A stretch of DNA of 64,000 nucleotides from Mobula hypostoma (taxonomy: Eukaryota). Location: NCBI RefSeq assembly GCF_963921235.1, contig NC_086108.1, forward strand, positions 57,104,001-57,168,000, written 5' to 3'. Shown here in pieces: positions 3,013 through 56,844 of the stretch (positions within the stretch are counted from its first letter, which is position 1; each line of letters opens with the position of its first letter). Under the pieces are notes generated by a model, which did no database searches, was not told where the DNA came from, and saw only the letters and a list, made by a program, of their open reading frames with translations. The translations under genes and the position numbers were made by a program.

Positions 3013-3019
3013 ATGAGCA

Positions 3020-3705
3020 TGCTCCTCATAACTTTGAAAATATAAAGCAGGTCTCCTCTCTACCTTCCCTGACAGACAAACTGAAGCCACCAATTAATTT
3101 TATCTATAGATTTAATAATTAAACATACAATATTTAAAATGCCTTTAAGAATGTCAAGGCAGTTCGCAAAAACAATACCAAAATAAATTAGACCATACAA
3201 AAGATGATATTATGGTAATAACCAAAACCATGATTAGGGATAGGAATGGTGGAGGAAAGGAGGAAATGAGGAAACAGAAAGGATTTGGAAAAGTCCACAG
3301 TTTAGAAATCAAGTATAAGAACAAAGTCAATAACTGACATGAGAGCAAGAAAGAGAAGCTTGATGTCAGTGATTTATTTGGAGTAGGACTGAGAGAGCTG
3401 GAGGTGGCTATCATGGAAAAATAAGCTCAGGAAGAACAAGAAAAGAATATAAGAGAAATTAGAGACAGTCTAAGAGTGTAGAGGAAGGCCATAAAGGAAA
3501 TTTGGCCCACTTGGTTTAGTAAGGGGGGGGGGAAACTGAGGCAGTTGATCAGTTGTCTCAGATTTAAAGAAAAAGTACCAATGGTGGGGAAAATAAACAA
3601 AACACCAGACAAACTTCAGAAGACAGGTTTGAGGTACAGAATGCAAGCTGGAGGTTGTCTTTGCATTCCAGGATGATTCTACAAAAGTGAGTAGTTTTGG
3701 CACAC
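3020..3705 (+). mobile_element. Highly degenerate L1-like ORF2 C-terminal fragment (tentative)
   Basis: A-rich sense strand. The end resembles the L1 C-terminal Cys/His region (...TKVSSFWH). No intact ORF. Confidence 0.3.
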
Positions 3706-7689: not shown

Positions 7690-8360
7690 CAAATTCTGTA
7701 TTGAAAGTTTTGGAAATCTATTTTCTCTACAATTTCTAAAGTTTTAAAAATTAATTTACAACCTAATAAGTTGACAGTTTTGTTCGGTATAATCCCTCAA
7801 TATATTCATGGTATTTCTATATCAGACCAACATGTAATTGCATTTGTCACATTATTGGCCAGAAGGGTTATTTTATTGAAATGGAAAGATGCCTCTACTC
7901 CCACTTTGATACAATGGTTCTCTTAGGTGATGCTATGTCTTAGTTTGGAGAAAATCAGAAGTCAAACTTTTGATCCTCCATTTGACTTTGAGAAAAGGTG
8001 GGGTTCTTTTGCCCGCTACTATCATCTGATTTGAGTTAATTGAGATGGTTTCCTTCTGATTCTTGTTTAAATGGATTTGAGTTGGCAGATTGATGTTTTT
8101 CTTTTCTGGAAGCTTGTATGGCGTATAGCTCCGGGGTTGTGCTCCCAATGGTTTTTTTTGTTAGCAGGGCTTTTTTTGTTTTAGTTAGTAGGGGTTCTTT
8201 TTCCCTTCTTTATTTTTTCTTATTATTGATATATTGTTTAGCTTTGTTAATCAGTTATTTGGTAATTTAATTCCTCATTGTACATATTGACATGTTGACT
8301 TGATTACCTTAATGTTTTTGTTGATGTTCAATAATAATTAATAAAAAGGATTTAAAAATG
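7690..8360 (+). mobile_element. L1-clade LINE 3' end
   Basis: Translates as IAFVTLLARRVILLKWKDASTPTLIQWFS*VMLCLSLEKIR...RW, a typical fish/shark L1 ORF2 C-terminus. Followed by a T-rich 3' UTR, AATAAA at about 8340 and an A-rich end. Confidence 0.75.
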
Positions 8361-8929
8361 AAATCTAATTTTAAAAATATATGCATCTACAGTTAAATTT
8401 GCAAGTTGCTGTATAGGATTTATAATCAAGGTAACAGTTCATTCCTGCATTTAATAAACAATCATAAATTCAAACAGCATTTTAACAGAACATCCTATTT
8501 AAAATAATCACCTCAGAAGACAATTAGATATCGATTTACAGTCTATAGTTAAATCCGTTTTCAGCCTAACAGATCTGCAAAGCAAAAACAGAATTATGCT
8601 CCCCTAATTAATCCGCAGCAAACCAGATCATATGTATTTAGTATGCAGCAGATACGAAAGCTAAGTTTATTGTAAGAAAGGAAACGAGCAATATTAATGG
8701 GAAGTGCCCCTGAATGGATTGAATGCAAAGTACCTCCAGTAACCACACGGCAAAAATCGAAGTGAAATTTTACATTCAAAATATGTAACCACGCACAGAA
8801 TTAGACCATTAGAAGTTATCTTAACCCATTCTTATTTTAAGTGAAACCAAAAGTCAACTTAAATAAAAGGACGAAGTTATTTAGGAAGTTAGCCGTGAAA
8901 CGAAGTCTAATGTTCCACCCCCAGCTTTT

Positions 8930-9540
8930 GCTCTGACTCCCGGGGAGACGCGTTGCCTGAGGTTAGCGATCCAAGGGCTGCAACACAACCCAATATTTGT
9001 CTGTCCTGGTTCTTCTAGAATCGTTTTCGGGGCCGCAGGAAAGTACAAACCTACCTCTACAGGATTGTTTTTGTGAGAACTTGGCCGCTTCCGACTCTCG
9101 TCGCGCTATGTCTGTCTTCACTTTCAATCTATTTCACAACAACATACCACTTCGCATCCACTGCTCAGCACCGCCACTGACCCCTCACCTCGTTACCAGC
9201 CTCGTTCCCAACGCAACGCCTCCCCACCCCCTGGCCCGACTGCTGGGGTTGCCGGGATAGCTGGCAATTCCTCCGGAGGACTCCTGGGACTGAAATGATG
9301 AAGGGAGGGGTGGAATCTTGGTGTCGCGAGCGCCCCCTCCGCTTTTTGCTTCTTTTGGGCCAGGCAAAACAGCGATGCAGAAATAAATCTGATAATAAAA
9401 CATAAAAAGAATAGGACAGCTGCCTGAAGCTGCTTTTTTTTTGCTAAGATATTGTTCAACACATCATTTTAGTCCGAAAATCTGACAATGAGTGTTCAGC
9501 AGGTTGTTCCACTGTGGGAAAACGATCACAGGTAAGCCAG
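8930..9540. promoter_or_regulatory. CpG-rich promoter-like region with a probable non-coding first exon on the - strand (about 9295 to 9189) and a + strand donor at 9531/9532
   Basis: Local CpG and GC enrichment in AT-rich surroundings. Minus-strand donor GAG|GTGAGG at 9189/9188. Plus-strand donor CAG|GTAAGC at 9531/9532. Confidence 0.55.
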
Positions 9541-14385: not shown

Positions 14386-14745
14386 TATTACAGCATATTA
14401 TTAATGTTGAAAAGCAAATGGATAAACACCTTTGCCTGAGCAGCAGTCTCCAGTCAATCAATTAGTCTAGAATTATCCAAAATACAACCCTAGATAATTA
14501 AAAGATTTAATTAAGACTTCAATGCCCAGAAATTGGACTCATTGGTAACATTTTTATCGTTCATAAAAAAAAACATTGGGCTCTTTCATGCCGAATTCTC
14601 ATCTATCAGAGAATTGGAACATGAATTTTTTGTCACATTTCACTATAACAAATTTAATTTTCCAAATGCCCTAACTGTGAGATAGGATATGATCATGGTG
14701 TGCAAATATTTCAAATTATGTCAGAAATTCGGTCATAAGTGGTGA

Positions 14746-14884
14746 ATTTAAACGTAAACAACAGGAATACTGCAGATGCTGGAAATTCAAGCAACATACA
14801 TCAAAGTTGCTGGTGAACGCAGCAGGCCAAGCAGCATCTATAGGAAGAGGCGCAGTCGACGTTTCAGGCCGAGACCCTTCGTCA
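14746..14884 (-). mobile_element. Short Penelope-family 3'-end insertion with 14-bp TSD
   Basis: gtcataagtggtga at 14732-14745 and 14881-14894 flanks a near-identical copy of the 21735-21860 sequence. Confidence 0.9.
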
Positions 14885-14914
14885 TAAGTGGTGAGTTAGG
14901 TTCTCATTACTTGA

Positions 14915-17519: not shown

Positions 17520-20500
17520 TACACCAAATAGACTAGATTGATGATTCAAAGGTAGCAAAAGGTGGAGGATCTGTGTTTCATGATAAACTTTTCTTGGTGC
17601 TCTGACTAAGCGGTCTTATTGCACTCATGTCCCCCAACCTGGAACATCTAATGATTAAGTACCAACCATTCTACTTACCAAACGAGATCTCCTTGTATTC
17701 CTGGCTGCAGTTTACATATTACCAACGGCTGATGTTAAGCAGACACTCAAGGTATTGAGTGCAGCAGTTAACAAATCATTGTTCGGGGCTTCAATCAGGC
17801 TTGCTTGGAGAAATCTCTGCCCAGTTGTCATCCACACATGCACAAGGGGTCCCAACACACTTGACCGCTGTTAGAATTGCCTACCATTCTATCAGTAGGC
17901 CGTATCTCAGAGATAAGGACAACAGAGGGCTGGTTGCAGGAAGCACAGGAGCAGCTATGGGATTGCTACAAGTTGATGGACTGGACCATATTTAAGAACT
18001 CATCAGAGGATCTGAATGAATACGCCACAGTAGTCACAGACTTCATAAAAACAGTTGTAGATGAGTGTGACCCTACAAAATCATTCAGAGTCTTCCTCAG
18101 TCAGAAGCCCAGAATGAACCAAGAGATCTGCAATTTGCTGAGGGCTAGATCACTGGTGTTCAGTTCCGGCAACCAACTAAAATATAAGAGGTCTAGGTAT
18201 GACCTCTGGAAAGCCATCTCACATGCAAAATGGCAATTCTGGAACAAACTTCTGGAAACCTAATAGCATGAATGGCAGTGATGCTTCACTACCAGACAAG
18301 CTCAACGCCTTCTATGCCTGCTTCGTGAAGATCCCTGCTGCGTCCGGTGACCCTGTGATCTCTGTCTCAGAGGCCAATGTCAGACTGTCTTTCAGGAGGG
18401 TGAACCCTTGCAAGGTGGCAGGCCCTGATGGAGTCCCAACCAACTAGTGGGAGTATTCAAGGACATTTCCAACCTCTGACTGCTATGGGCTGAAGTTCCC
18501 ACCTGCTTCAAAAAGGCAACAATTATACCAGTGCCCAATAAGAGTAGTATGAGCTGCCTTAATGACTGTCATTCAGTAGAACTAATATCTATGGTGATGA
18601 AATGCTTTTAGAGGTTGGTAATAGATTGAATCAACTCCTGCCTCAGTAAGGACCTGGACACATGGCAATTTGCCTATCGCCGCAATGGATTTACGGCAGA
18701 TGCAATCTCAATGGCTCTTCACACAGCCTTAGATCACCTGGACAATATAAACACCTATGTCAGGATGCTGTTTGATGATTATAGCTCAGCATTTAACGCT
18801 ATCATTCCCACAGTCTTGACTGATAAGCCAGAGAACCTGGACCTCTGTACCTCCCTCTGCAAATGGATCCTCAACTTCCTAACTGGAAGACCACAAACTC
18901 TGCAGATTGGCAATAATATCTCCTCCTTGCTGACAATAAATGCTGGTGCACATCAGGGATGTGTGTTTAACCCAATGCTCTATTCTGTCTATTCCCATGA
19001 CTGTGTGACTAGATATAGCTCAAATGCCATCTTTAAATTTGCTGATGATATAACCATTATTGGCAGAATGGCAGGTGGAGACGAGCGGGTGTACAGGAGT
19101 GAGGTATACCAGCTAATTGAATGGTGTCTCAGCAACAAGCTTGCAGTCGATCTCAGTAAGAGCAAAGAGCTGATTGTGGCCTTCATCAAGGTAAGATGAG
19201 GGAACACAAACAAATCATCATAGAGGGATCAGAAGTGTACAGAGTGAGCGGGTGTCAAGATCTCTGAGGATCTAACCTGATTCCAACATAATAATGCAGC
19301 TATAACTAAGGCAAGACAATGGCTATATTTCATTAGGAGCTTGAGGAGATTTGTTTTGTCACCTGAAACACTTGAAAACTAAAACAGATGTACTGTGGAG
19401 AGCATTCTGACAGACTTCATCACTCTCTGGTGTGGGGGGACTACTGTTCTGACAGACTTCATCACTCTCTGGTATGGGGGGACTACTGTTCTGACAGACT
19501 TCATCACTCTCTGGTATGGGGGGACTACTGTTCTGACAGACTTCATCACTCTCTGGTATGGGGGGGACTACTGTACTGACAGACTTCATCACTCTCTGGT
19601 ATGGGGGGGGACTACTGTTCTGACAGACTTCATCACTCTCTGGTATGGGGGGACTACTGTACTGACAGACTTAATCACTCTCTGGTATGGGGGGCACTAC
19701 TGTTCTGACAGACTTCATCACTCTCTGGTGTGGGGGGACTACTGTTCTGACAGACTTCATCACTCTCTGGTATGGGGGGACTACTGTTCTGACAGACTTC
19801 ATCACACTCTGGTATGGGGGGACTACTGTTCTGACAGACTTCATCACTCTCTGGTATGGGGGGGGACCACTGTACTGACAGACTTCATCACTCTCTGGTA
19901 TGGGGGGGACTACTGTTCTGACAGACTTCATCACTCTCTGGTATGGGGGGACTACTGTTCTGTCAGACTTCATCACTCTCTAGTATGGGGGGACTACTGT
20001 TCTGACAGACTTCATCACTCTCTGGTATGGGGGGACTACTGTACTGACAGACTTCATCACTCTCTGGTATAGGGGGACTACTGTACTGACAGACTTCATC
20101 ACTCTCTGGTATGGGGGGACTACTGTACAGGATTGAAAGAAGCTACAAAAAGTTGTGAAATTAGTCAGCTCCATCATAGGTATTAGCCTCCGTAGTTTCC
20201 AAGACACCTTCAAAGAGCGGTGACTCAGAAAGGTGGCGCCCATTATTGAGGACCCCCATGTCCTCTTATTGTTACCATCAGGGAGGAGGTATAGAAGTCC
20301 GAAGGCACACACTCAGCGATTCAGGAACAGCTTTTTCCCCTTTGCCATCCGATTCCTAAATGGACATTGAACCCATGAACACTAACTCACTTTTTCTTTT
20401 ATATCATTTCTGTTTTTTGCGTTATTTTAAATGTAACTGTTTAATCTACGTATATATACTCACGTTAATTTATTTATTTATGTTTTTCTACATTATCATG

Positions 20501-20577: not shown

Positions 20578-21689
20578 ACTTGTTTCACTGAAGGATTCTT
20601 GATAGCTGTGGCAGGGCTTGAATATTATTGCTCTTATAAAGTGAAACTAAGTGACATAGGTGAAATTAAGGTTTCGCTTCCAGATGAACTCAATGTCTTT
20701 TATGCTTGCTTTGACCATCAACACATGGAGGCATTTTCACAGACTCCCACAGGACCCAACCAACCTGTGATTTCAGTCTCTGAAGCCTATGTAAGAGCAT
20801 CTTTCAGGAGGGTGAACCCATGTAAAGCATCCAGCCCAGATGGGGTACCTGGCCAAGTGCTGATCAACTGGTTAGAGGTTGAGTGACATCCTTAACCTTT
20901 CGTTTCAGCAGTCTAAGATACCCACCTGCTTCAAGCAGACTTCAAGTATACCAGCGCCTAAGAAGAACTACTAAGGTTCTCAATGACCATCATCTGGTAG
21001 CACTTACATCCTCTGTGAGAAGTTAGTTCAAAGTAAATTTATTATCAAAGGACATTGATGTCACAATACACCATCATGAGTTTCATTTTCTTGCGGACAT
21101 ACTCAACAAATCCATAATAGAATAATAACCATAATAGAATTAATGAGAGACTGCGCTAACTGGGCATTCAACCAGTGTGCAGAATACAACAAACACTGCA
21201 AATACAAAAAGGAAAAATATAATAGTAATAAATAAATGAGAAATAAATATTGAGAACATGAGATGAAAAGGCTTTGAAAGTGGATCCATAGGTTGTGGGA
21301 ACATTTCAGTGGTGGGACAAATGAAGTTGAGTGAAGTTATCCCCTTTGGTTTGGGAGCCTGATGGTGAGGGGTAATAACTGTTCCTGGACCTGGTGGTGT
21401 GAGTCCTGAGGCTCCTGTACCTTCTTCCACATGGCACCAACTAGGTAGTGGTGGTCTGTGATGATTGATGCTGCTTTCCTGTGACAACATTTCATGTAGA
21501 TGTGCTCAATGGAGGGAAGGAATTTACCTCTGAAAGACTTGTAGGATGGACTGCTGTGTTTTCTTTGAAATGGTACTTATGGTGCCTATAAAAAGTATTC
21601 ACCCCACCCCCACCCGGAAGTTTTCATGCTTCATACATCAAAGTTGCTGGTGAACGCAGCAGGCCAAGCAGCATCTATAGAAAGAGGTG

Positions 21690-21723
21690 CAGTCGACGTT
21701 TCAGGCTGAGACCCTTCGTCAGG
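21690..21723 (-). ncRNA. Minimal hammerhead core on the opposite arm of the palindrome
   Basis: The minus strand reads c-CTGACGA-agggtctcagcct-GAAA-cg-TC-gactg. The 5' strand of stem I is mostly missing. Confidence 0.65.
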
Positions 21724-21731
21724 GACCCTAC

Positions 21732-21767
21732 GTCCTGACGAAGGGTCTCGGCCTGAAACGTCGACTG
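21732..21767 (+). ncRNA. Minimal type I hammerhead ribozyme motif (Penelope-associated)
   Basis: gtc-CTGACGA(21735-41)-agggtctcggcct-GAAA(21755-58)-cg-TC|-gactg. All core nucleotides are present. Stem III is reduced to palindromic ACGT. Predicted cleavage is after 21762. Confidence 0.8.
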
Positions 21768-22044
21768 CACCTCTTTCTATAGATGCTGCTTGGCCTGCTG
21801 CGTTCACCAGCCACTTTGATGTATGTTGCTTGAATTTCCAGCATCTGCAGAATTCCTGTAGTTTTCATGCTTTATTGTTTTACAACATTGAGTCACAGTG
21901 GATTTAATTTAGCTTTTTTTTGATAGTGATCAACAGAAAAAGACTCATGTCAAGGTGAAAACAGATCTCTGCAAACTGGTCTAAATGAATTACAAATATA
22001 AAACACAAAATAATTGATTGCAAAAGTGTTTACCTCCTACAAGT

Positions 22045-23060
22045 CAGTACTGTATTTAGTAGATGCCCCTTTGACAGCAATTACAGCCTTGAGTCTGTGT
22101 GGATAGGGCTCCATCAGGTTTGCACATCTGGACACTGCAATCTTTCCCCATTCTTCTTTACGATACTCAAGTTCCATCAAATTGCATGGGGATCCTGAGT
22201 GAACAGCCTTTTTTCAACTTGAACTATAAATTCCCAATTGAATTGAGGTCTGGACTCTGACTTAGCCACTCCAGGGCATTAACTTCATTGTTTTTAAGCC
22301 ATTACCGTGTAGCTTTGGCTTTATGCTTGGGGTCATTGTCTTGCTGGAAAACAAATCTTCTCCCAGGTCACAGTTCTTTTGCAGATTGCATCAGGTTTTC
22401 CTCCAGGATTACCATTTATTTTGCGGCATTAATTTTACCCTCTTCCTACACAAGCCTTCCAGGGCCTACTGCACTGAAGCATCCCTACAGTATGATGCAG
22501 TCACCACCATGCTTCATGGTAGGTTTGGTGTGTTTTTGATGATGTGTGATGTTTGGCTTACGCCAAACATAGCATTTAGTCTGATGGCCAAAAAGCTTAA
22601 TTTTGGTTTCATCAGACCATAGAACCTTTTTTCAGCTGACTTCAGAGTCTCCCACATGCCTTCTGGCAATCTCTAGCTGAGAGTTCAGGTGAGTATTTCT
22701 CAACAGTGGCTTTCTCTTTGCCACTCTCCCATAAAACTGTGACTGTTGACACACCCAGACAACAGTTGTATGTGCAGTCTCTCCCATCTCAGCCACTGAA
22801 GCTTGTAACTTCTCCAGAGTTATCATAGGTCTCTTGGTCTCCCTTACTAGTCCCCTTCTTGCATGGTCATTCAGTTTTTGAGGATAGCCTGCTCTAGGCA
22901 GATTTACAGCTGTGCCATTTTCTTTCCACTTCTTAATGATTGACTTAACTGTACTCCAAGGAATATTGAGTGATTTGGAAATTTTCTTGTGCTCATCTCC
23001 TGACTTGTGCTTTTCAATAACCTTTTTATGGAATTGCTTGGAGTGTTCTTTTGTCTTCAT
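22045..23060 (-). pseudogene. Tc1 transposase pseudogene
   Basis: ORF 22632-23060 (MKTKEHSKQ...GRVAKRKPLL) is the HTH region. Downstream FQQDNDPKH and WLSQSPDLNSI motifs carry stops and frameshifts. Confidence 0.92.
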
Positions 23061-24589
23061 GGTGTAGTCTATGACAGGATACTGACTCAGCAGCAGTTGA
23101 ACCTTCCAGATACAGGTGTGTTTTTAGTACAATCAGTTGAAACACCTTGACTGCACACAACACAAGTCTCCAAAAACAGATCTCCATTTAACTAATTATG
23201 TGACTTCTAAAACCAATTGGCTGCATCAGTGATGATTTTGTGTGTCATATTAAAGGGGGTGAATACTTAGGCAATCAATTATTTTGTGTTTTATATTTGT
23301 TAATAATTTAGATCACTTTATAGAGATCTGTCTTCAATATGACAGGAAAGTCTTTTTCTGTTGATCAGTTTCAAAAAAGCCAAATGAAGTCCACTGTGAT
23401 TCAATGTTGTAAAACAATAAGACTTGAAAACGTCCAAGGAGAGTGAACACTTTCTATGGGCACTGTATGTGCTGGACCCAGGACAGGTCCTCTGAAATGA
23501 TAATACCGAGGAATTTAAAGTTCCTGACCCTCTCCACCTCTGATCCCCTGGTTTCCTCGTCCTGAAGTCAATAATCAGCCCCTTGGTAATGAAGCATATC
23601 ATCTCCTGCCTGAGCAGTGACTCGGATCCACCTCAATTTGCTGGCCATAACAGCAGGTCAACAGCAGATGCCATTTCATTGGTTCTTCATTCAAACCTGG
23701 TACATCTGGACAGTGAACATGCATACATTAGGATGTTCTTCATTGACTGCAGCTCAGCATTGGATGCTATGATCCCCTCAAAACTAATATACGCCAACAC
23801 CTAGGCCTCAATAGCTCCTTGTGCAAGTAGATCTTTGATTTCCTCACCAATCAGTTCAGATCAGCAACAACATCTCCTCCACAATCACCATCAGCAAAGG
23901 TGCTCCACATGCTGTGTGCTTAGCCCCCCTGCTCTACTTGCTTTATATTTACGACTGTGAGGCTAAGTACAGCTCCCATGCCAAATTTAAGTTTGCTGAT
24001 GACCCCACTGTCATTGACCGAATCAAAGGTGGTGACAAATCAGCATAAAGCAGGGAGGTTGAACATCTGGCTAAGTGGTATCATAACACCCTCTCATTCA
24101 ATGTAGCAAGACGAAGGAGGTGATTATTGACTGCAGGAGGAGGAAATGGGGATCCATGAGCCAGTCCTCATTGGGTTATCAGAGAGGGAGTGGGCCAGTA
24201 ACTTTTAATTCCTTGGTGCTATCATTTCAGAGGATCTGCCCTGGCTCCAGCATGTTAGGTGGCATTACAAAGAAAGCATGGCAGTGTCTCTACTTTGTTA
24301 GAAGTTTGGATAGATTCAGCATATCATCTAACATTTTTACAAACTTCTATAGATGTGTGGTGGAGAGTCTACTAACTGGTTCCACCATGGTCTGATATGG
24401 AAAGACCAATGCCCTTGAACAGGTAAGCCTATAAAAAGTAGTGAATACAGCCCAGTCCATCACGGGTAAAGCCCTCTCTACCACTGAGCACGTCTGCACG
24501 AAGTGTTGTCGCAGGAAACAACATCCATCATCAGGAACTCCCTCTCCCTGGAAGTGCTCTCATCAGAAAAAAGATACAGGAGCCTCACC

Positions 24590-25525
24590 TTTGCACAACG
24601 GAATGTCAGAATGGAAATGGGAATTGGAATTAAAATGATTGATCTCTGGGAAGTTCCACTTTTGGAGGATGGAGTGGAATGTGATCGATGAAGCAGTCCC
24701 CCAATTTAGGGTAGGTCTCCTAATTTAGAGGAGGCCGAATCGGGAGCATCAGACACAAAGGTGACCCCAGCAGGTTTGCAGGTGAAGTGATGCCTCACCT
24801 GGAAGGATTATTTGTGGTCCTGAATGAGGTGAGGGAGGAGGTGAATGGGCAGGTGTGGCACTTTGGCCACTTGCAGGGATAAGTGCCAGAAGGGAGATTA
24901 GTGGAGAGAGATGAATGGATAAGGGAGTGATCCCTGTGGGAAGTGGAGAGAGGGGGTAGTAAAAATATGTTTGGTAGTAGGATCTTTTTGGAGATGACAG
25001 AAGTGGTGGAGGATAATTCCAATTCCTATTCTGTTCTGACATGTCGGACCATGGCCATTTCCTGTCTCAAGCTGAGGCCACCTTCTGGGTGGAGGAGCAA
25101 CATCTTATATTCTGTTTGGTAGCTTCCATCTCGATGGCATGAATATCAGTTTCTCCTTGCTGTCTAAAAAGTTTCTTCCCAATCCCCTCTTCTTCTATTC
25201 CCCACTCCAGCCTCTTCTCTCTTCTCTCCTCCCCCTGGGACCCCTCCACACTTTCTTTCTTCTATAATCCACTCTCCTCTCCTATTATACTTCTTCTTCT
25301 CCAGCCCTTTATCTTTACTATCCACCTAGCTTCACCTATCACCTTCTAGGTATCCTGATTGCCCTATTCTGGCGTCTTCCCCTTTCCTTTTCAATCCTGG
25401 TGAAGGGTCTCGACCTGAAACTTTGACTGTTTATTCATTTCTATAGGTGCTGCCTGGCCTGATGAGTTCCTCCAGCATTTTGTGTTTGTTGCTTTGGATT
25501 TCCAGCATCTGCAGACTTCCTTGTA
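24590..25525. mobile_element. Penelope-like remnants as an inverted pair: about 24590-25035 (-) and about 25040-25525 (+)
   Basis: The minus part encodes PSGTYPCKWPKCHTCPF, the Cys linker before the GIY-YIG endonuclease. The plus part has the EEQHLIF region, 3' UTR and a mutated hammerhead at 25392-25429. Confidence 0.8.
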
Positions 25526-26547: not shown

Positions 26548-27168
26548 ACTATTCAGACTGCGAAGCCTCTTCCGGTGATGCCTACACCGAAGAAGTTTAA
26601 ATCTTCTCTTCGACGGGAGTTCAGTGAAACCATCTCTTACCGCTCCCCATCTGTAATTTCTTCGGCTCTTCAACTTTTCGGCCACATTTCGACTCAGACT
26701 CGCTATCACAGCCATATTTCCTTTCTTGGAACGTGCCTCCGTCGCCAACTTACTCCAGTTGGCTTTAGGTCTCCAACTTCCGCTAATGCCCCACCTCCCG
26801 CTCGTACCCCATCCGTTATTTATTTATATACACACATTCTTTCTCTCTTTTTCTCCCTCTGTCCCTCTGACTATACCCCTTGCCCATCCTCTGGGTTCCC
26901 CCTCCTTGTCTTTCTCCCCGGGCCTCCTGTCCCATGATCCTCTCATATCCCCTTTGCCAATCACCTGTCCGGCTCTTGGCTCCATCCCTCCCCCTCCTGT
27001 CTTCTCCTATCATTTTGGATCTCCCCCTCCCCCTCCCACTTTCAAATCTCTTAGTAACTCTTCCTTCAGTTAGTCCTGACTAAGGGTCTCAGCCTGAAAC
27101 GTCGACTGTACCTCTTCCTAGAGATGTTGCCTGGCCTGCTGTGTTCACCAGCAACTTTAATGTGTGAT
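26548..27168 (+). mobile_element. Internally deleted young Penelope-like element
   Basis: CpG-rich ORF start (MPTPKKFKSSLRREF...RYHSHISFLGTCLRRQLTPVGF) is joined at about 26770 to the ORF end (SNFR*), then 3' UTR and a hammerhead motif at 27071-27108 (core G8 changed to T). Confidence 0.8.
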
Positions 27169-28779
27169 GCAGGCTGACAGCTTTGTTTCTTGCTTAGCTG
27201 TGAGGAGATATACTGTAGTGGCAGTCTCGCCATTCTTCTTGCAAAGGAGGCATTATTCTCAGGAGGAAATGTACAAAAATAACTGATCTCACTGGTGCCA
27301 GAACACCTACTTCTTGTCACAGCGTTGCTGAGCTAGGAGATGGACTACATAGCTCTGGGTTCCACTCCTGATTGCCAATCGTTAGCTCTATCAGAGAAAT
27401 TTAAGTATGTGGACATCTTAACACAGTTGTTAACTATGCTGGAGTTGACCACTCTGTTGACATTCCCAAATGAATAGTTACCATTCCTATGTGCCACCAG
27501 AGCTGACGGGTGCTTGTGCATTTTGAAGTCCAATAGTAGATATCTCTTAATGTCTACACTGATTTCTTCATTACCTCTGGCCTCTATTTTGTTTCCAGGA
27601 TCAGTGAAGGAAATAAGCCATAGATGCTCCATAACAGATTTGTTTCCCTACATCACAATTCTGGATCTTCATAGCTAGACTTAAGTTCTAAAATTAAAAT
27701 CACTTGTACTTGGAATAAGTATATGACAGGTCCATTACAGAAACAAATGAAGGGCAACTTAAAGAAACTGGATTTGGGCTTGTACAGAGCAGAGAATCTT
27801 TGCAAGCCCTATAAGCACTACTACTTGCCAACCCAGCAACATTACCCTCCTTCATCCGACCAGTCACCATGCACAGGTGCAGCCATAAAAACCATATTCA
27901 GTTTCTACCTCAGAAACTACAGCAGTTTTATGGCAGGGGTCACATTGATGACTGGGTGTTGAGTATGACCCAAGTTTGCGAAATCAAAATACATTTGAAG
28001 TAAGTGAACACATTCGCTGTTACCTTCAGTTCTAAGTCTTTCAGTAGGGATTACATTCAAATTGATCAGAAAATATTTAAATAATTGACAATTGCACTTC
28101 AGAATTTCATCCTAAACTATAGCTTTAGTAAATACCACAGTCAAAAATCACACCAGTCAGACAGAGTAAAAAAAATTATTGCAAACAATGATAGTGTTTC
28201 GGAAATAAACAAAAAAAACCCTTCCAGAACAAAATCCAATAATGCTTTAACTGCCTTTTGATATTATTCTTCACATAAAATGTATTAATATAATTTGATA
28301 AAAATTTAAACAAAGAAGGCTGTTTATTGTAAATCAGGATATCTGGAAATATTTATAATATAAATCAATATATTAATCACATTGTGGAAATTAATGACAG
28401 TGTCCAATAGACCATTTCACTATAGAGACATTAAATATCATATATTTAGCTGTTGGTTTAAAGCATTGTAATTTAGAACAATATGCTGAATGGAATGAGG
28501 AGCAAGTGCATAATAGAAAGAAGACAAGATACAGGATGTGAAAAATAATAAGAAAAAGATGATTGTGAGCTAAAGGCAAAATAAGAAAAGGAAAAAAAAT
28601 GTGAAGAGATTTAGGTAGATATATCAATCCAGAGAGAAAAGAATGAGTCATATATTGAGAGCAGCCAGACAAATTACAAACAGGAGAGAAGAAAAAATAT
28701 AGAACCAGACAGTGGGCCAAAGAAATACAGATATATTCACTAAGATCTGGTAAAATGTTAGGAATAATATTTAATTATT

Positions 28780-30216: not shown

Positions 30217-30858
30217 ATCACAACAACAGAAATTCTGCAAATGCTGGAAATCCAAACAACACCCACAAAATGCTTGTGGAACTCAGCAGGCCAGGCAGAA
30301 TCTATGGAAAAGAGTACAGTCGGTGTTTTGGGCAGAGACACTTCAGCAGGACTGGAGGAAAAAAGATGTTAGAAGGTGAAGGGAGGGGAGGGAGAAACAC
30401 AAGGTGATAGGTGAAACTGGGAGGTGGGGGGTGAAGTAAAGAGCTGGGAAGTTGATTGGTGAGAAAGATACAGGGCTGGAGAAGGGGGAATCTTATAAGA
30501 GAGGATAGAAGGCCTTGGAAGAAAGGAAAGGGGGAGGAGCACCAGAGGGAGTTGATGAGCAGGCAAGGAGATAAATTGAGAGAGGGAAATGGGATGAGGA
30601 ATGGTGAAGGAGAGGGGGGAAGCCATTACCGGAAGTTCGAGAAATCAATGTTCATCCCATCTGGTTGGATGCCACCTGGACGGAATATGAGGTGTTGCTT
30701 CTCAAACTTGAGTATGGCCTCATTGCGACAGTAGAGGAAGCTATGGATTGACTTGTCAGAATGAGAATGGGAAGTGGAATTAAAATGGGTGGCCACTGGA
30801 ACATCCCGCTTTTTCTGGCAGATGGAATGTAGGTGCTCAGCAAAGTGGTCTCCCAATC
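30217..30858 (-). mobile_element. Penelope-like element 3' portion (end of GIY-YIG, 3' UTR, decayed hammerhead)
   Basis: ORF 30626-30856 reads GDHFAEHLHSI...VATHFNS..H...QHLIFRPGGIQPDGMNIDFSNFR*. Hammerhead remnant at 30317-30354. Confidence 0.88.
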
Positions 30859-33665
30859 TATAAGACCATAAGACATAGGAGCAGAATTAGGCCATTTGGC
30901 CCATCAAGTCTGCTCCACCATGTAATCATGGCTGATCCTTTTTTTCTCCTCCTCAACTCCATTTCCTGGCCTTCTCCCCGTAACCTTTGATGCCACGTCC
31001 AATCAAGAACCTAACAGTCTCTGCCTTAAATACACCCAACAACCTGGTCTCAACAGCTGCACATGGCAACAAATTCCACAAATTCACCACCCTCTGGCTA
31101 AAGAAATATCTCCATATCTCTGTTTTGAATGGACACCTCTCTATCCTGAGGCTCTGTCCTCTTGTCCTAGACTCTCCCACCATGGGAAACATCCTTTCCA
31201 CATCCACTCTGTCTAGTCCATTCAACATTCGAAAGGTTTCGATCCCCCCTCATCCTTCTAAATTCTGGCGAGTACAGTCACAAAGTCATCAAATGTTCCT
31301 CGTATAATAAACCTTTCATTCCTGGAATCATCCTTGTGAATCTCCTCTGGACCCTCTTCAATGCCAGCACATCTCTCCTAAGATGAGGAGCCCAAAACTG
31401 TACACAATACTCAAGGTGAAACCTCACCAGTGCCTTATAAAGCCTCAGTATCACTTCCCTGCTCCTGTATTCGAGACCTCTTGAAATGAATGCTAACATG
31501 GCATTTGCCTTCCTCACCACCAACTCAACCTGCAAGTTAACTTTTAGGGTGTTCTCCACAAGGACTCCCAAGTCCCTTTGCATCTCAGATTTTTAGATTT
31601 TCTCCCTGTTTAGAAAATAGTCCACACATTTATCTCTACTACCAAAGTGCATGACTATGCATTTTCCGGCATATTTCATTTGCCACTTTCTTGTCCATTC
31701 TCCTAATCTATTTAAGTCCTTCTGCATCCTACCTGTTTCCTCAACGCTACCTGCCCCTCCACCAATCTTTGTATCATCTGTAAACTTGGCAACAAAGCCA
31801 TCTATTTCATCATCTAAATCATTTACATATAGTGTACAAAGAAGTGGTCCCAACACCGACCCCTGCAGAACACCACTAGTCACTGGCAGCCAACCAACCA
31901 AGGATCCTTTTATGCAACACACATAAAAGTTGCTGGTGAACGCAGCAGGCCAGGCAGCATCTCTAGGAAGAGGTGCAGTCGACCTTTAGGTGCAGGATCC
32001 TTTTATTCCCACTTGCTGCCTTCTTCCAATCAACTAATACTCTAACCATCTTAGTAACTTTCCTGTAATACCATGCGCTTTTAACTTGGTAGCAGCCTTA
32101 TGTGTGGCACCTTGTCAAAGGCCTTCTGAAAGTCCAGATACACAACATCTCAAAGACTTCCAACAGGTTCATCAGGCAGGATTTTCCCTTAAGGAAGCCA
32201 TGCTGACTTTGTCCTATCTTGTCCTGTGTCACCAAGTACTCCATCACCTCGTCCTTAACAATTGACTCTAACATCTTCCCAACCACGGAGATCAGGCAAA
32301 CTGGTCTATAATTTCCTTTCTGCTGCCTTCCTCCTTTCTTAAAAAGTGGAGTGACATTTTCAATGTTCCAGTCCTCTGGCACCATGCCAGAATCCAATGA
32401 TTTTTTTGGAAGATCATTTCTAATGTCGCCACAATCTCTAACACTACCTCTTTCAGAACCCTAGGGTGCAGTTTATCTGGTCCAGGTGACTTGTGTACCT
32501 TTAGATCTTTCAGCTTTTTGAGCACCTTCTCCCTTGTAATGATAACTGCACCCACTTCTCTTCCTTCGCACAGTACAACATCTGACACACTGCTAGTGTC
32601 TTCCACAGTGAAGACAGATGCAAAATACTCATTTAGTTCATCTGTCATCTTGTCCCTCCTCTGGATGAAGAAATTTATTCTCAATTAGGACCATAAGATA
32701 TAGGAGCAGAAGTAGGCCATTTGGCAGATGAACTAAATTAGGATTTTGCATCTGTCCTCACTGTGGAAGACTAGCAGTGTGCCAGATGTTGTGTGAAGGA
32801 AAGAAGTAGGTGCAGTTATATTTCTCCTGCCTCATTTTTACCTTTATTATCTTTTACTATCCATCTTGATATTATTTGCTAGCTTGCTTTCATGTTTCAT
32901 CCTTTCCCTTCTAATGATTCTTTTAGTTGCTCTCTGTAGGTTTTTAAAAACTTCCCAATCTTCTATCTTCCCACTAATTTTTGTTTTGTTGTATGCCTTA
33001 TCTTTTGTTTTTACATTAGCTTTGACTTCCCTTGTCAGCCATGGTTGTACTATTTTGCCATTTGAGTGTTTCTTCACTTTTGGAATACGTCTATCCTGCA
33101 CCTTCCTCATTTTTCCCAGAAACACACACCATTGCTGCTCTGCTGATATCCCTGCCAGCAGCTCCTTCCAATTTACTTTGGCCAACTCCTCTCTCATACC
33201 ACTGTAGTTTCCCTTTCTCCACTGAAATACTGCTACATCAGACTTCACTTTCTCCCTATGAATTTTCAAGTTGAACTCAATCATATTGTGATCACTGGTT
33301 CCTGAGGGTTCTTTTACCTTAATCTCCCTAATCCCCTCCGGTTCATTACATAACACCCAATCCAGTACAGCTGGTCCCCTAGTAGGCTCAACGACAAACT
33401 GCTCTAAAAAGCCTTCTCTTAGGCATTCAACAAACTCACTCTCTTGAGATCCATTACCAACCTGATTTTCCCAAGCGACCTGTATGTTGAAATCTCCCAT
33501 GACCATCATAACATTGCACTTTTGACACACCTTTTCTATTTCCTGTAGTAATCTGTGGTCCACCTCTCAGCCACAGTTGGGAGGCCTGTATATAACTGCC
33601 ATCAGGGTCCTTTTACCCTTGCAGTTTTTTAAATTCAAACCTCAAGGATTCAACATCTTCCAACC
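30859..33665 (-). mobile_element. CR1 LINE (EN and RT fragments, frameshifted, internally rearranged)
   Basis: GDFN and SDH endonuclease motifs in ORF 32847-33563. RT motifs in the ORFs spanning 31278-32684. Tail taagaccataagacatag at about 30861. Confidence 0.92.
31914..31993 (-). mobile_element. 80-bp Penelope 3'-end insertion with 13-bp TSD
   Basis: aggatccttttat at 31901-31913 and 31994-32006. The insert matches the family tail from about the hammerhead cleavage site onward. Confidence 0.88.
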
Positions 33666-33669
33666 TAGG

Positions 33670-34182
33670 TCGGGTCTTACCGATATCACCCATTTTAATT
33701 CCACTTCCCATGGCATCCTCTACTGTCGTGATGAGGCCACACTCAGGTTGGAGTGACACCTTATATTCCATCTGAATCCAAACAGATGGCATGAACATTG
33801 ATTTCTCGAACTGCCCCTGCCCCTCCTTCACCCTTCCCCATCCCCTTTTCCCAATCTCAACTTATCTCCTTGCCTGTCTATCGCCTCCCACTGGTCCTCC
33901 TCCCCCTTTTCTTTCTTCCGTGGCCTTCTGTCCTCTCCTATTAGATTCCCCCTTCTCCAGCCCTGTATCTCTCACCAATCAACCTCTCAGCTCTTTACTT
34001 CATCCCTCACCCCATCCCCCGGTTTTACCTATCGCCTTATGTTTCTCTCTCCCCTCCCCCCTACTCTTGACTCCTCATCTTTTTTTTCTCCAGTCCTGCT
34101 GAAGAGTCTTGGCCCAAAACGTCAACTGTACTCTTTTCCATAGATACTGCCTGGCTTGCTGAGTTCCTCTAGCATTTTGTGT
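33670..34182 (+). mobile_element. Penelope-like 3' portion, inverted partner of 30217-30858
   Basis: THFNS and MNIDFSN remnants. Hammerhead remnant at 34091-34128. Shared outer TSD gtgtccttg(c/t)aacaca at 30201-30216 and 34183-34198. Confidence 0.85.
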
Positions 34183-35959
34183 GTGTCCTTGTAACACACT
34201 ATTTAAAGTTAAAAGGCTAATGTAATGTTGGCCATCACTGCAGAGAGATATGAATATATGAGTAAAAGCACCTTCCTGAAATTATAAATGGCCTTGATGA
34301 GACTGCACTTGGAAATATCATTTACAATACTACCTAAGCAAGAGTATTCTTGCAACAGAGGGACTGCAGCCAAGTTTTACTAGATGATTCCTGGGAAGAC
34401 GGTATTGTCCCATGTGAAAAGTTTAAGTGGACCGGACCAATACTTTTTACAACTTAGAAATATGGGCGATGATATCAGTGTACATACAAAATTACTACAG
34501 AGCATGACAGGGTACAAGCTGGAATGATAATTTGTCCTAGTCAGAGTGTCTTAAACTTCAGGTCACCATCTCAAAATAATGGCTGAGGGCAGAAGTGAGA
34601 ATAAATTTCTTCATCCAGAGGATTGCAAATCTTTGAGGAATCTTCTAACCAAAAGGGTTAAACAAAGAGAGGGTTGTAGGAGCTGAGTTGCTAAGTATAT
34701 TTAAGACAGAGATCAGCTTATTTTCAGATATTAAGAAAATAGAGGGATAGGGAGTTAGTGCAGGAAAATGGCATCAATCTACCTTACTGAATGACAGAGT
34801 AGGAGCAAGGAGCTTGGTCTTGCTTCCATTTCTATGTTCTTACTTCTTATGCACATGTTTCTGACTGTACGTAACTCAGCAGATGTAAAACTGTTTCAGT
34901 TGGTTACAGCTGTCAAAAGCTCAATCACTCACTCTCAAATTTTTTTCAGATCATAGTTTGAGTTGTATGCACTATATGGGTTAAATGTTATTACAGTAAT
35001 CTGCAAAATAATATTGAAAAATTTTATTTTTCATAGACAAGCTTTTCTGTAGAACACTGTCAGATTTTGTGGCTACTACTTCCTCTGGTATCTTTTACAA
35101 CTGGCCAACATTCAGATGTAAAATTTTGATTGCCCTTGGGTTTTTCATTTCTCCTGTTGTATCCTAAACTACAGTGCACTCCAAAGTAATATCTTGCATT
35201 TGAAAGAAATCAAGAGGCTTCTTAATTTGTATTGCTACAATAATGCTCATAGCATTTAACAAATGAGTTACTTGGAGAAGGTTCTTAATTGCGCTGCTTT
35301 ACAGTGCGTTAAAACATTGGCCCAGAATCTGCTAGAGCAGAAGAATCTTGCAGTGTGACCCATTGGCAAATTTTATTTCTTGCCCTTCAGCTTGAAGAAA
35401 AATAACAGGGCATTTGGGACCTTAGTAAATGCAAGGACTGACTGATTATCTCCTTAATGAAAGAGGTTTAAAGATAGCAGGGAGAGAAGAACAGAGGAAC
35501 AAAGGAGGGAAAAACATAATGAATGCAGACAGGCAAAGAGAAATACTGTAAAGAAGAGAAGATGTATATGAAATATAGATAAATAGGAGCGGGGGCACAC
35601 TATTGAACCCTGCTCTGCCATTCACTGCAAACCTGAACCTCAGTCTTAATACAGATTGGATTAGAGTGAGAAGAAAAAAAGACCCAGAAGGAAATTACCT
35701 GCAATTTAATAACTGTGACAGGCAAATTTTCGAAATTTAGTAGTTTCTTGTTTATATGTGAGCTTGTCAAAGAGTATGAAGAGAAAATAAGTTTATCATT
35801 AAGGAATCCTTATATTAGTAGGACTCACCTTCTGTGGTGAAATCAATTGGTTTACACAGACCGTATTCAGCAGATTCCTCAATCGCATCTGAAAGTAAAC
35901 CCTACTATCAGCACTAACAAAGGGAAATATTAAATGTTAAATGTAAGTAAAACGGAGTC

Positions 35960-36520
35960 ATGGGAGACTGCTGATGCTGGAATCTGGAGCAAGAAACAAA
36001 TGCTGGAGGAACTTAGTGGGTCAGGCAGCATCTGTGATCAGTCAACATTTTGGGTCGAGATTCTTTATCTGGACTGAAAAAGTAGAGAGGAGAATTCTCC
36101 GCCACAGGAAACAGTTGAGGCCAGTTCATTGGCTATATTTAAGAGGGAGTTAGATATGGCCCTTGTGGCTAAAGGGATCAGGGGGTATGGAGGGAAGGCT
36201 GGTACAGGGTTCTGAGTTGGATGATCAGCCATGATCATACTGAATGGCGGTGCAGGCTCGAAGGGCCGAATGGCCTACTCCTGCACCCATGTTCTATGTT
36301 TCTATATCCAGTACAGAATCGTGAGGAGGAGGGGTGGAGCAAGAATTGGCAAGTGATACGCAAATCTGGGTGAGGAGGTTTGATAGCCAGATGCACAAGG
36401 GAAGAGTAGAAATAGTGACAGAAGCTGGGGGGCACAGGTGGAGGCAACTAAGGGCTGTAATTGATGAAATCTGATAGGTAAGGAAGGTGGAGCATGGAAC
36501 CAAATAAGGGAGGTACGGTG
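35960..36520 (-). mobile_element. Old Penelope-like 3' UTR remnant containing a CR1 3' fragment
   Basis: Family tail (atgctggaggaacttagtgggtcaggcagcatct), decayed hammerhead at about 36039-36076 and a purine-rich UTR. Confidence 0.7.
36092..36305 (+). mobile_element. Short CR1 3' fragment, same subfamily as 896-3012
   Basis: Near-identical to the reverse complement of about 900-1105. Ends ttctatgtttctat. Confidence 0.9.
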
Positions 36521-42067: not shown

Positions 42068-42382
42068 GTTGCTACAAGAGATTCTGCAGATGCTGAAAAT
42101 CCAGAGTAACACACACACAAAATGCAGGAGGTATTTGGGTCAGGCAGCATCTGAGAAGAGGAATACAACAGTTGACATTTTGAGCCAGGACCCTTCATCA
42201 GGACTGGAATGGAAGGGGGGAAAGCCAGAATAAGAAGGTGGGGGGAAGGGAAGGAGAGCAAGCTGGCAGGTGATAGGTGAGATCAGGTGAGGGGGAAGGT
42301 GGGTGGAGGAGGAGGGATGAAGTGAGAAGCTGAGAGGTGATTGGTGGAAAAGATAAAGGGCTGAAGAAAAAGGAATCTGAGG
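42068..42382 (-). mobile_element. Penelope-like 3' UTR with hammerhead remnant (42169-42206)
   Basis: The minus strand reads cagtc-CTGATGA-agggtcctggctc-AAAA-tg-TC-aactg. Confidence 0.8.
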
Positions 42383-46182: not shown

Positions 46183-46964
46183 AAAAAAAAGTTCCTGGGA
46201 TGGTCTGGGGAGAGATGAAGCTCAGCAGATTAGTATTCAGTAAAGCACAGAATGAGAGAGGATGTGACTGAAACTGATAAAGTGCTGACAGAGCGAGACG
46301 GATGTTTCTTGTGAGCAGTGGTATCTGCAACAAGGAGTCACAGTCTCGAGATACGAGCTTGAGATTTAAGAGTGAGATAAATGTCTTCACTCAGAAATTG
46401 ACGAATTCATTTCACTCCCACAGAGGGTTAAAGAAGCCAAGTTACTGAATCGTTTTGTGACAAAAAAGCTTCTAAGCACACAAGGCATCAAGGGGTTTGA
46501 GGAAAGAGCGAAAGAATGGCATTAAGATAGATGATCAGCTATGATGGTATCAAAAGGCAGTACAGACTTGAGGACGCCAAAAGGCCTACTCCTGTTTTAT
46601 ACGTTTCTATGTGAATGACAAGTCATATTCATTCTGACCTATCTACCTCCTGATATTGATGCTTCTGTCTTTCTCCAAAATCATTATACTGTAAATAGGA
46701 AGCCTATTCTGGAAATACTATAGTTACTGGGTTAAGAATTGTTACACCACATCAATTGGCACAAAATTTCATTAAAAATAACAAAAGCATTACAGAACAT
46801 GAGAGAAATGACAGGAAAATTAGCAAATAAAATCACATTATTAGGCTAGTTAAATGAACTTCTAAACATAGATCGGTCCCTAATAATCCTGGATCTCCAC
46901 CTTATTCATTGGTTAACTCAATCTTAGATATGTTGGAATAACTGAAGACCACTGTTTAAATAGC

Positions 46965-47712
46965 CGGAGTAACACACGAAATGCTGGAGGAACTCAGCAG
47001 TTCAGGCAGCATTTATGAAGAAGAATGAAGAATTGATGCATTGGGCCAAGACCCTTCATCAGGACTGGAAGGGAAGGGGGAAATAGCCAGAATAAGATGG
47101 TGAGGGCAGAGGATGGAGTACAAGCTGATAGATGAAGCTATGTGAAGGAAAGGTAGGTTAGTGGGGGAGGGGTGAATGAGAAGCTGGGGGTGATAGGTGG
47201 AAAGTATAAAGGGCTGAAGAAAAAGGAATCTGATAGGAGAAAAAGGGAAGGAGGAGCACCAGAGGGAGATGATAGGCGGGTAAGGAGAAGAGAAGAGGTG
47301 AGAAGGAGGCAGAATCAGAAATGGAAGAAGAGAGAATGGGGATGGGGAAAAATTGCTGGAAATTAGAGAAATCGATGTTCATGCTGTCAGGTTGTAGGCT
47401 ACCAAGATGGAGTATGAGGTGTTGCTCTTCCAACCTGAAAAGTGGCCTCATCTTGGCAGTAGAGGAGGCCATGGACTGACATCTTGGAATGGGTATTGGG
47501 ATTAGACTTAAAATGGTGGGCCACTGTGAGATATTGCTTGACAGAGCAAAGGTGCTTGACAAAGTGGTCCTCCAACCTACATTGGGTCTCACCAGTGCAG
47601 AGGAGACTGCACTGGGAGCATGAGATACAGTAGATAATTCCATCAGAATCACAGCTGAAGTGCTTCCTCACCTGGAAGGACTGTTTTGGACCCTGAATGG
47701 TTGTGAGGGAGG
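46965..47712 (-). mobile_element. Penelope-like element 3' portion with a degenerate GIY-YIG endonuclease
   Basis: FSCDSDGIIYCISCSQCSLLCTGETQCRLEDHFVKHL and EEQHLILHLGSLQPDSMNIDFSNF. Hammerhead remnant at about 47031-47067. Confidence 0.88.
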
Positions 47713-49249
47713 ATCTCCTGATTATTTATCCCTTCCTCCCCCTTCTCTGCAGAATCTATTGTACTTAAACAGCCAGGTTCTTTTTGACCACAGAACATCT
47801 CAAAGTACTTTGCAGCCAATGAGATAATGTTGGATTATAGTCACTGTTGTGAGAAGAAAGGCAGAAAATTGCACAAGCACTTAAAGATTGTTTCTGAACG
47901 TCATTGAACATTCAAATTATGTTCTAGCAGGTCTCTGGTTTTCACCCAGCAAACTCCACCTATCAACATCAAAGACGACTTGAAACATGAAATGGCTGGA
48001 GATCCGAAGATTCTTCTATTATTTTCTAATTATAGTTCAGGTAACTGGAAAGGAGAGGAACTGACGAAAATAATTTCTTTCAAAATGTAATTGGTGTCCA
48101 CAGGCTATTGCCTGAAAGGTATGTGGAAGAAGAAATCTTCATCACATCCAAAAGTTCCAGGAGGAGCATAAGGCATTCAGAAGCCTACGAGGGTGTGTGG
48201 ACTGATAGCTCTATAGTCCATTAGTTTGATTCTCTCTTTTTGACTAGAATGATCACAACAGGCTAAATACTCTCCTTCTCTGCTATAATCTTCTAGGATG
48301 TTATGTATCTGTACATTGTACTCATATCTGGGGTTACCAGTAAGTGGTCCTGGTGCCCAAAGTATTGATTATTTCATTGCTCAGTAATAACATAACTCAA
48401 AAATAAATAAATATTGTACAAAAATGTGAATAAATTCGAAGTCATGAATACAATACATTGAATTCCAGTACTGATAATGACTGATCTATCTATGAATGAC
48501 TATAACTGTTACTATTGAAAAGTTATTTGACTGGAAAGACATAAATATACATGTAATACCACATTGTTCCATATAGATGTTAATTGCATGTTTGATTGTC
48601 ATTTGGAAACTTCACTGAATGTGCAGCAAATACTGGCACTTATTCTTGTGTGGGTGGCAAGCAGGCATTGGTATGGAGGAAAACAACACATATAATTAAA
48701 GTGCTCCCTGGCCTACATTCAAACACCCACACAAAACTCAAGCTATCACGACCAACAGACCCTGTTAGAATTACTAATGTACAGAAACAAAATTATGTTA
48801 AAACTGCTCATCTAAAAAAAACTTTCTCATAAGATGCAAATATATATGTATTTGCATACATCTTCCTTTGTTTTATGAAATTAAAAAGAATCATTTACCT
48901 TTTTTATGCATTAGAAAATTTTAGTTATTTCTGCATTTTAAAAGATCTGAATTGAAAATGAGCATTAATAAATGCAGCATTTCTGACTCGTGGTGAATGC
49001 TGAAATATTGTCCTGCTTTCACCGGGGAGATTCCACTGACTCTTAGAAATCCCAAGGCAGAAGAAAGACCACTAATCTGCACTCTGGAGCACTTAATATC
49101 AGCATGGGAAAGTGAAATTCCTTAAAAATCTGATCTGATACAATGGGGATGTGAAAATGGGTGGACATTAAGCTGCTTTTACAGTCAGGAGATGCATTTC
49201 CTATGTTGGAAGTCATTTAGTATTTTAAAACAGCAAAGGGCTGCTCATT

Positions 49250-55224: not shown

Positions 55225-55665
55225 GACACAATTTTCAGCAGATGCTGAAAAATCTTGAGGAACACTTACATACTGTTAAAGGAACTCAGCAAATCAAGCA
55301 GCACCTTTGGAGGGGAATAAACAGTCGATGTTTCAGGCCAAGACGCTTCATCAGGGCTGGAAAGGAAGGGGGTAGAAGCCAGAATAAGAAGGTGGGAGAG
55401 GGGGAGGAGACAAGCTGGCAGGTGATAGGTGAAACCTGGTGAGTGGAAGGTGGGTAGGTGGGGAGGGGGGCTAGGTGAAACCTGGTGAGTGGAAGGTGGG
55501 TAGGTGGGGAGGGGGGCTATGATTGAGAAGTTGGGAAGTGATAGCTGGAAGAGGTAGAAGGCTGAAGATGAAGGAATCTGATAGAAGAGGACAGTGGAGT
55601 AAAGGGAAAGAGATGGGGAACTGGAGGCAAATCATGAGGGTAGTGAAGAAGAAGAGAAGGGACTG
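55225..55665 (-). mobile_element. Penelope-like 3' UTR with hammerhead motif (55322-55359) and an internal 46-bp duplication
   Basis: The minus strand reads cagcc-CTGATGA-agcgtcttggcct-GAAA-ca-TC-gactg. Direct repeat at 55426-55471 and 55472-55517. Confidence 0.82.
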
Positions 55666-56736: not shown

Positions 56737-56844
56737 TTCAGAAGATTAACTGTAGATGTGTGAAAAAGCAGTATTCTTTGCAATTAGGGTTTGTTTTAGT
56801 GGCATGTGATGTTAGTTTCTGACATTCCCACAGTTGTTATGTAG

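Follow-up and report, generated by a model that had tools for sequence, protein, structure and literature searches.

The locus at 21732–21767 raises the question of whether a short motif scattered over 64 kb of genomic DNA (the whole stretch analysed, hereafter the window) is a self-cleaving RNA, and whether cleavage has any part in copying the repeat that carries it. A first-pass annotation had read the locus, hereafter the anchor, as a minimal hammerhead ribozyme of a Penelope-like element (PLE) recurring at 10 places. Our analysis indicates that the motif is very likely a type I hammerhead of the minimal kind, located in the pseudo-LTR (pLTR) of a high-copy PLE and predicted to cleave after GUC only when dimeric or assisted by protein, and that the copies in the window are dead insertions likely derived from uncut RNA.

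Copies in the window and their parent element

All 10 listed places carry the repeat, and its recurrence was far above chance: the 5′ half of the motif matched six times in the window (0.70 expected) and the 3′ half eight times (0.42 expected). The motif as first written (5-bp stem I, CTGAYGA, GAAA, CG and UH) was complete in none of the 10, however. The entire core with the ACGU palindrome was kept at 21690 and 21732 (2/10), where CUGANGA, GAAA and UH also occur in order; this order was absent from the other eight copies. The core of the 14853 copy lacks C3, that of the 27071 copy reads CTGACTA, those of the 30317 and 34091 copies read CTGCTGA (A6C), and GAAA is gone from the 42169 and 47031 copies. 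The 5-bp stem I described by the annotation is found in full elements, but the anchor begins at GTC after non-element bases and its stem I is therefore 3 bp; that of the 21690 copy is 1 bp. The cut predicted after 21762 was in the correct register. Since 13-bp duplications bracket 21632–21859, the anchor and the inverted copy beside it represent one insertion event (Table 1). Upstream of four of the 10 copies (25392, 30317, 34091 and 47031), tblastn detected remnants of the PLE endonuclease end, and the 27071 copy retains only the final codons of the ORF, joined to the ORF start. A profile of the 3′ flank alone (flank-only HMM) identified 14 window copies, and reversed DNA gave no match. The window copies are dead fragments, and the anchor is without most of stem I.

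Table 1. Parts of the anchor motif and copies of the repeat in the window
Feature	Position	Strand	Remarks
Anchor hammerhead motif	21732..21767	+	
Anchor stem I remnant	21732-21734	+	
Anchor CUGACGA	21735-21741	+	
Anchor unpaired A	21742	+	
Anchor stem II	21743-21754	+	4 bp, G-U closing pair
Anchor GAAA	21755-21758	+	
Anchor stem III	21758-21761	+	palindromic ACGU
Anchor stem I, 3′ strand	21763-21767	+	predicted cut just before, after 21762
Head-to-head fold-back insertion, forward arm	21732..21859	+	hammerhead, 3′ flank, pLTR tail
Same fold-back (21632-21859), inverted arm	21632..21723	-	second core 21690-21723, 1 bp stem I, without tail
Target-site duplication of 21632-21859 fold-back	left 21619..21631, right 21860..21872		13 bp
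Short young copy, starts within core (C3 lost)	14746..14884	-	14-bp duplication at 14732-14745 and 14881-14894
Young copy, ORF start fused to 3′ UTR and pLTR (internal deletion)	26556..27170	+	core CTGACTA at 27071-27108
Young copy absent from the first-pass list	31914..31987	-	starts few bases before predicted cut; 13-bp duplication at 31901-31913 and 31994-32006
Old copy: pyrimidine-rich UTR, decayed and partly inverted remnants of the endonuclease end	24581..25520	+	degenerate motif 25392-25429
Old A6C-subfamily copy: endonuclease end, UTR	30229..30859	-	degenerate motif 30317-30354
Old A6C-subfamily copy: frameshifted endonuclease end, UTR	33574..34186	+	degenerate motif 34091-34128
Old copy: UTR	42079..42380	-	degenerate motif 42169-42206
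Old copy: frameshifted GIY-YIG end, UTR	46961..47713	-	degenerate motif 47030-47067
Old copy: UTR	55234..55588	-	degenerate motif 55322-55359
Decayed pLTR copy absent from the first-pass list	35964..36080	-	

The window also holds features of other kinds. An open 940-aa LINE ORF2 with AP endonuclease and RT lies at 61001–63823(+), with decayed relatives at 904–3025, 30867–33566 and 39646–41516, and an imperfect palindrome of about 280 bp in LINE remnants (32541–32820) scored below threshold against a plant miRNA model. A 245-aa RT C-terminal remnant at 42943–43680(−) matched Pfam ALKBH8_N, a family typical of L2/Rex-Babar-like LINE ends. Tandem repetition with a 42/84-bp period (approximate) was found within a decayed RT remnant (19405–20128), and a fragment of a Tc1/Sleeping Beauty-type transposase at 22632–23123(−). 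An uninterrupted 201-aa Ras-family ORF (56140–56745(−); Pfam Ras, E 2e-47) resembles a DIRAS-type small GTPase.

The parent element was characterised from 20 loci picked because they contain the ORF start. Hammerhead pairs about 3.5 kb apart were present in 11 of these and an open frame of 1,041–1,043 aa in five, giving an element with a single RT and GIY-YIG ORF (1,043 aa) flanked by two hammerhead-bearing repeats. The Pfam matches of the 1,043-aa protein to RVT_1 (E 4e-5) and GIY-YIG (E 2e-4) were both under the curated cut-offs; the protein contains the motifs DKG, YIDD and GVIY/YIGET, as well as a CX2-5CxxC linker between RT and endonuclease (residues 910–918). It has 348 homologs, and the nearest named ones are from Chiloscyllium punctatum (69%–71% over 61%–69% of the query), which makes a cartilaginous fish the likely host. 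Judged by sequence, this is an endonuclease-positive PLE in which one ORF encodes RT plus GIY-YIG at the C terminus, and it also displays the hallmarks of PLEs, namely the spaced repeats (11/20), an inverted arm (73/201 young copies) and two clusters of 3′ ends. The linker marks Neptune and Nematis (PMC8557442). Members of the Neptune clade likewise possess a C-terminal GIY-YIG, DKG and a zinc-finger-like linker, together with partial tandems, 5′-truncated and inverted copies and a one-sided tail (PMC8557442); the comparison was made by motif, and the linker fits both Neptune and Nematis.

In the source genome (3.48 Gb), the exact core with 3 bp of stem I occurred 66,805 times, against 0 in the reversed control, and two 30-mers of the young 3′ flank occurred 60,440 and 21,501 times. 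Across 100 preset 10-kb stretches, the flank profile detected 194 copies, which extrapolates to approximately 674,000 copies per genome (bootstrap 567,000–789,000). The first-pass annotation had proposed an abundant family with a young subfamily that keeps an intact core; both proposals agree with the 66,805 exact cores among some 670,000 copies and with the core retained in 79 of 105 ungapped young copies. The core was canonical in the youngest ORF-intact elements.

The motif as a predicted hammerhead ribozyme

The annotation had suggested that Rfam be searched for a hammerhead match, and none was found: the scan of the window yielded 11 matches at E up to 10, with no hammerhead family among them. 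Relatives of the element protein were drawn from metagenomes. Of 80 loci fetched, 36 reached past the end of the ORF by 250 nt or more and 44 were dropped; the best segments were 29%–63% identical. A hammerhead descriptor matched the sense strand in 13 of the 36, 95–151 nt past the ORF end, whereas the antisense strand and shuffles gave 0. The descriptor allowed a spacer of 0–12 nt after GAAA, yet this was 2 nt in every match (CG or UG), and all 13 matches had an ACGU or AUGU palindrome as well as an A after the core; the palindrome of the element here is ACGU. Among the remaining 23 relatives, 11 matched with up to two substitutions, versus two on the antisense strand.

The annotation had also proposed a covariance analysis, for which 11 rows were aligned (two from this genome and nine of the 13 relative matches). 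Seven of nine stem pairs had changed on both sides, 86.5% of cells were paired and the covariation score was 0.70, compared with 0.25 for shuffled and at most 0.15 for slid alignments. Because the rows were preselected by a descriptor that demanded stems of at least 3 bp, and because the 13 matches represent only about seven families, this covariation is support rather than proof. The G10.1–C11.1 pair was G-C in 10 of the 11 rows and G-U in the young element. Taken together, the same core, position and covarying stems in distant relatives uphold the assignment to a PLE-borne minimal type I hammerhead. A chance resemblance, in which the end of a repeat merely happened to contain CUGANGA and GAAA, might be read from the lack of a hammerhead family among the Rfam matches and from folding z-scores no better than those of shuffles, although such scores are uninformative for a dimer-dependent motif. 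It is scarcely credible when distant relatives with different stem sequences share core, spacing, strand and position, with a free spacer that is always 2 nt, and it was rejected on the 13 of 36 relatives with the core and on the stem covariation.

Predicted folds did not favour the active structure in context. The probability of stem I was 0.001, with the hammerhead fold disfavoured; when upstream sequence was included, the best predicted fold was a hairpin at about −47 to −17 (relative to the cut) that hides the core. For the dimer, the active fold was predicted at −11.5 kcal/mol versus −30.3 kcal/mol for the best cofold. With regard to conservation, both stems and the remainder of the core are preserved in the three largest clusters defined by flanks, and between subfamilies the 3′ flank is kept as well as the core. 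Core positions varied by 0.9%, and other positions by 4.8% on average (median 1.9%); sites diagnostic of subfamilies are counted in the second figure, and we therefore make no claim of selection on inserted copies.

One subfamily carries a natural change in the core. Position 6 of the core was C in 14 of 194 aligned copies, which have flanks in common, including the older-subfamily copies in the window with the core CUGCYGA (30317–30354(−) and 34091–34128(+)), and an otherwise exact A6C core occurred in 1,185 copies genome-wide. Two of six A6C loci examined had young-type flanks; these two are probably sporadic. For a different hammerhead, cleavage with A6C is more than 10,000-fold slower in Mg2+ than in Mn2+ (PMC7151607). 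Because the A6C subfamily was amplified and the same change cripples Mg2+ cleavage elsewhere, our analysis suggests that fast cleavage is dispensable for amplification.

Copy ends and the copied RNA

To characterise what was inserted, 201 young copies were anchored by their 3′ flank without regard to the core. The majority (176/201) read through the predicted cut by at least 4 nt, and 73 of the 201 had an inverted arm (fold-back). A total of 164 5′ ends were mapped, the other 37 copies being long or running off the fetched DNA. Of these ends, 73 fell at −41 to −18, with a mode at −31, versus 24 and 17 in equal flanking windows, in a window picked post hoc and with inverted arms counting twice; in the 78 simple copies, 25 ends fell there versus nine and six. 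The 3′ ends formed two clusters (+59 to +72 and +101 to +111) about 40 nt apart, and target-site duplications, where found, were 8–17 bp, mostly 11–15 bp. Genome-wide, 1,865 blunt starts were counted at −31, on a different anchor from the cut-site count below. Among 24 loci at −31, 13 were fold-backs and 11 were scored as simple, five of the latter with a duplication; a 13–15-bp duplication lay no more than one base away from the start of the element in five of six simple −31 copies. In a test for a cap-derived G, nine of 28 5′ ends scored, against 5.9 expected.

Ends at the cut itself were fewer. A mild excess at −3 to +8 (16 in 12 nt vs. 18 in 31 nt, p = 0.013, post hoc window) was accompanied by 240 blunt starts genome-wide at the cut, compared with 65, 82, 41 and 30 at +1, +2, −1 and −2, that is, three to eight times the neighbouring counts. 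The end excess and the blunt peak imply that a minority of copies may derive from cut RNA. As a footprint of cleavage, however, the blunt peak was rejected: all 20 loci examined from the 240 (19 insertions) were fold-backs in which the other arm reads through the cut, and most of these join at a short stretch that matches stem I or stem II.

The heap of 5′ ends at the front edge of the hammerhead, and not at the cut, suggests that the RNA starts, or that RT stalls, at this edge. An RNA start would agree with the duplications that adjoin simple −31 copies and with Penelope of D. virilis, whose transcription begins within the pLTR (PMC2377424), and an RNA 5′ end at −31 is a serious candidate that we put at somewhat under even; a stop at the hairpin that hides the core is possible at a lower probability. 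In the mechanism we favour, the element protein would nick the target and begin reverse transcription at an internal position, some 65 or 102 nt beyond the cut site, as in the anole element. RT would copy through the uncut hammerhead and would often stop 18–41 nt upstream of the cut, chiefly at −31, where the anchor copy starts. The cDNA would then join the target or fold back via short complementary patches, stem I among them, and selection would maintain the ribozyme in master elements and not in inserted copies.

A different use of the motif, proposed in PMC4209133, would be efficient cutting in vivo: two pLTR ribozymes pair via ACGU, release a 3.5-kb unit and the ligated circle serves as template. 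Ligation would restore the junction, so that copies made in this way would look uncut in DNA, and both the hammerhead pairs that bracket the ORF in 11 of 20 loci and the mild end excess with its blunt starts (240 vs. 30–82 nearby) are in keeping with such a cycle. We nevertheless regard it as unlikely, given that the 20 cut-site loci were without exception fold-backs that share microhomology with stem I or stem II, that the active dimer fold lies far from the best cofold, and that a circle has no end at −31, where the copies heap. Still less probable is that the motif is a passenger relic, inherited from older PLEs and no longer cutting, with its bases held for another role such as promoter function or protein binding. 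The amplification of an older subfamily with an A6C core, the upstream hairpin in the predicted fold and the equal retention of the 3′ flank between subfamilies could be explained in this way; against it stand the stems and remaining core kept by the three largest clusters, the canonical core of the youngest ORF-intact elements and the stem partners that covary across distant relatives.

The heap of 5′ ends might also mark a splice acceptor (pyrimidine tract, AG and core), as in the Penelope of D. virilis, with the short copies arising from spliced RNA. A pyrimidine tract and AG do precede the core in young and old subfamilies, and the D. virilis intron end maps to helix I (PMC4209133). This explanation is nonetheless highly improbable, as no upstream exon is shared among copies starting at −31 to −33 and several of them directly abut the target-site duplication; GT-AG joints numbered 0 among the 15 of 16 joints shown from four contig sets, which is weak evidence. 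Separately, one non-GT-AG joint (955 to 1317, with 9 letters between; locus L068:900–1900) was common to contigs of three runs and is probably a deleted genomic copy. Uncut RNA as the source of the window copies remains our preferred reading.

Comparison with known elements and significance

The motif shares its architecture with the minimal hammerheads of Xena, Poseidon and Neptune (Cervera and de la Pena 2014, PMC4209133), which are type I, without loop III, palindromic at 15.2–16.2, and have an unpaired base after A9, a short stem I, a pLTR position and mostly solo truncated copies. Its copy number is far higher, with 66,805 exact matches versus about 4,000–9,000 in coelacanth and Xenopus, and the stem II closing pair is G-U in the youngest elements here versus G-C in those ribozymes (PMC4209133). 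The minimal hammerheads described there showed no cleavage as monomers and low cleavage as dimers. In the text consulted, that paper names no cartilaginous fish.

A close parallel is PAc, a Poseidon element from Anolis carolinensis (Frangieh et al. 2024, PMC11167929), with a hammerhead at the pLTR–ORF junction and two clusters of 3′ ends that define a tail, as in the element here. The anole hammerhead cuts only with protein and is dispensable for insertion, reverse transcription starts at two internal sites and uncut RNA is the main template (PMC11167929). The element here differs from PAc in having the CX2-5CxxC linker (Neptune/Nematis type) and in its open frame, which starts about 57 nt after the cut here and inside stem II in PAc; a heap of 5′ ends at the front edge of the hammerhead was seen here, whereas the text consulted on PAc describes none (PMC11167929). 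Our literature search found no paper on a 5′-end or template-switch hotspot at PLE hammerheads.

Non-LTR retrozymes also carry PLE-derived type I hammerheads and are reported from one chondrichthyan as well (bioRxiv 10.64898/2026.07.22.740005). These consist of tandem non-coding units, whereas the window copies are dispersed or head-to-head PLE fragments; classification of the latter as retrozymes was rejected, as they contain no tandem non-coding units with a hammerhead each. Elsewhere in the genome, one tandem array (L407; G000:C2:15836500-15841500) comprises 46 units of 42 bp with one A6C-type hammerhead each, many of them further decayed, and sits between an inverted pLTR arm and a 3′ flank. 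Its unit is below the 51–972 bp of retrozyme units in the preprint (bioRxiv 10.64898/2026.07.22.740005). No paper naming the family in cartilaginous fish was found in the literature search, and it may be listed in Dfam, Repbase or the supplementary data to PMC4209133, PMC8557442 and the 2026 preprint.

Hammerheads of this kind have been in print since 2014 (PMC4209133), and the motif itself is not new; the role of PLE hammerheads is still described as open (PMC8557442; PMC11167929). What this family offers is very large numbers, with some 67,000 cores still intact, elements that are both young and intact, and a subfamily in which A6C occurs naturally. The copy ends that heap away from the cut speak against a template defined by cleavage, and they reveal a sharp boundary at the front edge of the ribozyme. 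If the RNA starts at about −31, a reading we hold tentatively and just short of even, tens of thousands of 90–140-bp copies would be run-off cDNAs of the 5′ end of the uncut transcript. The ribozyme would then not set the ends of the copied RNA, stem complementarity would drive the fold-backs and the A6C lineage could still amplify. In that case, the genome would record the start of PLE transcription, and reverse transcription, at base resolution.
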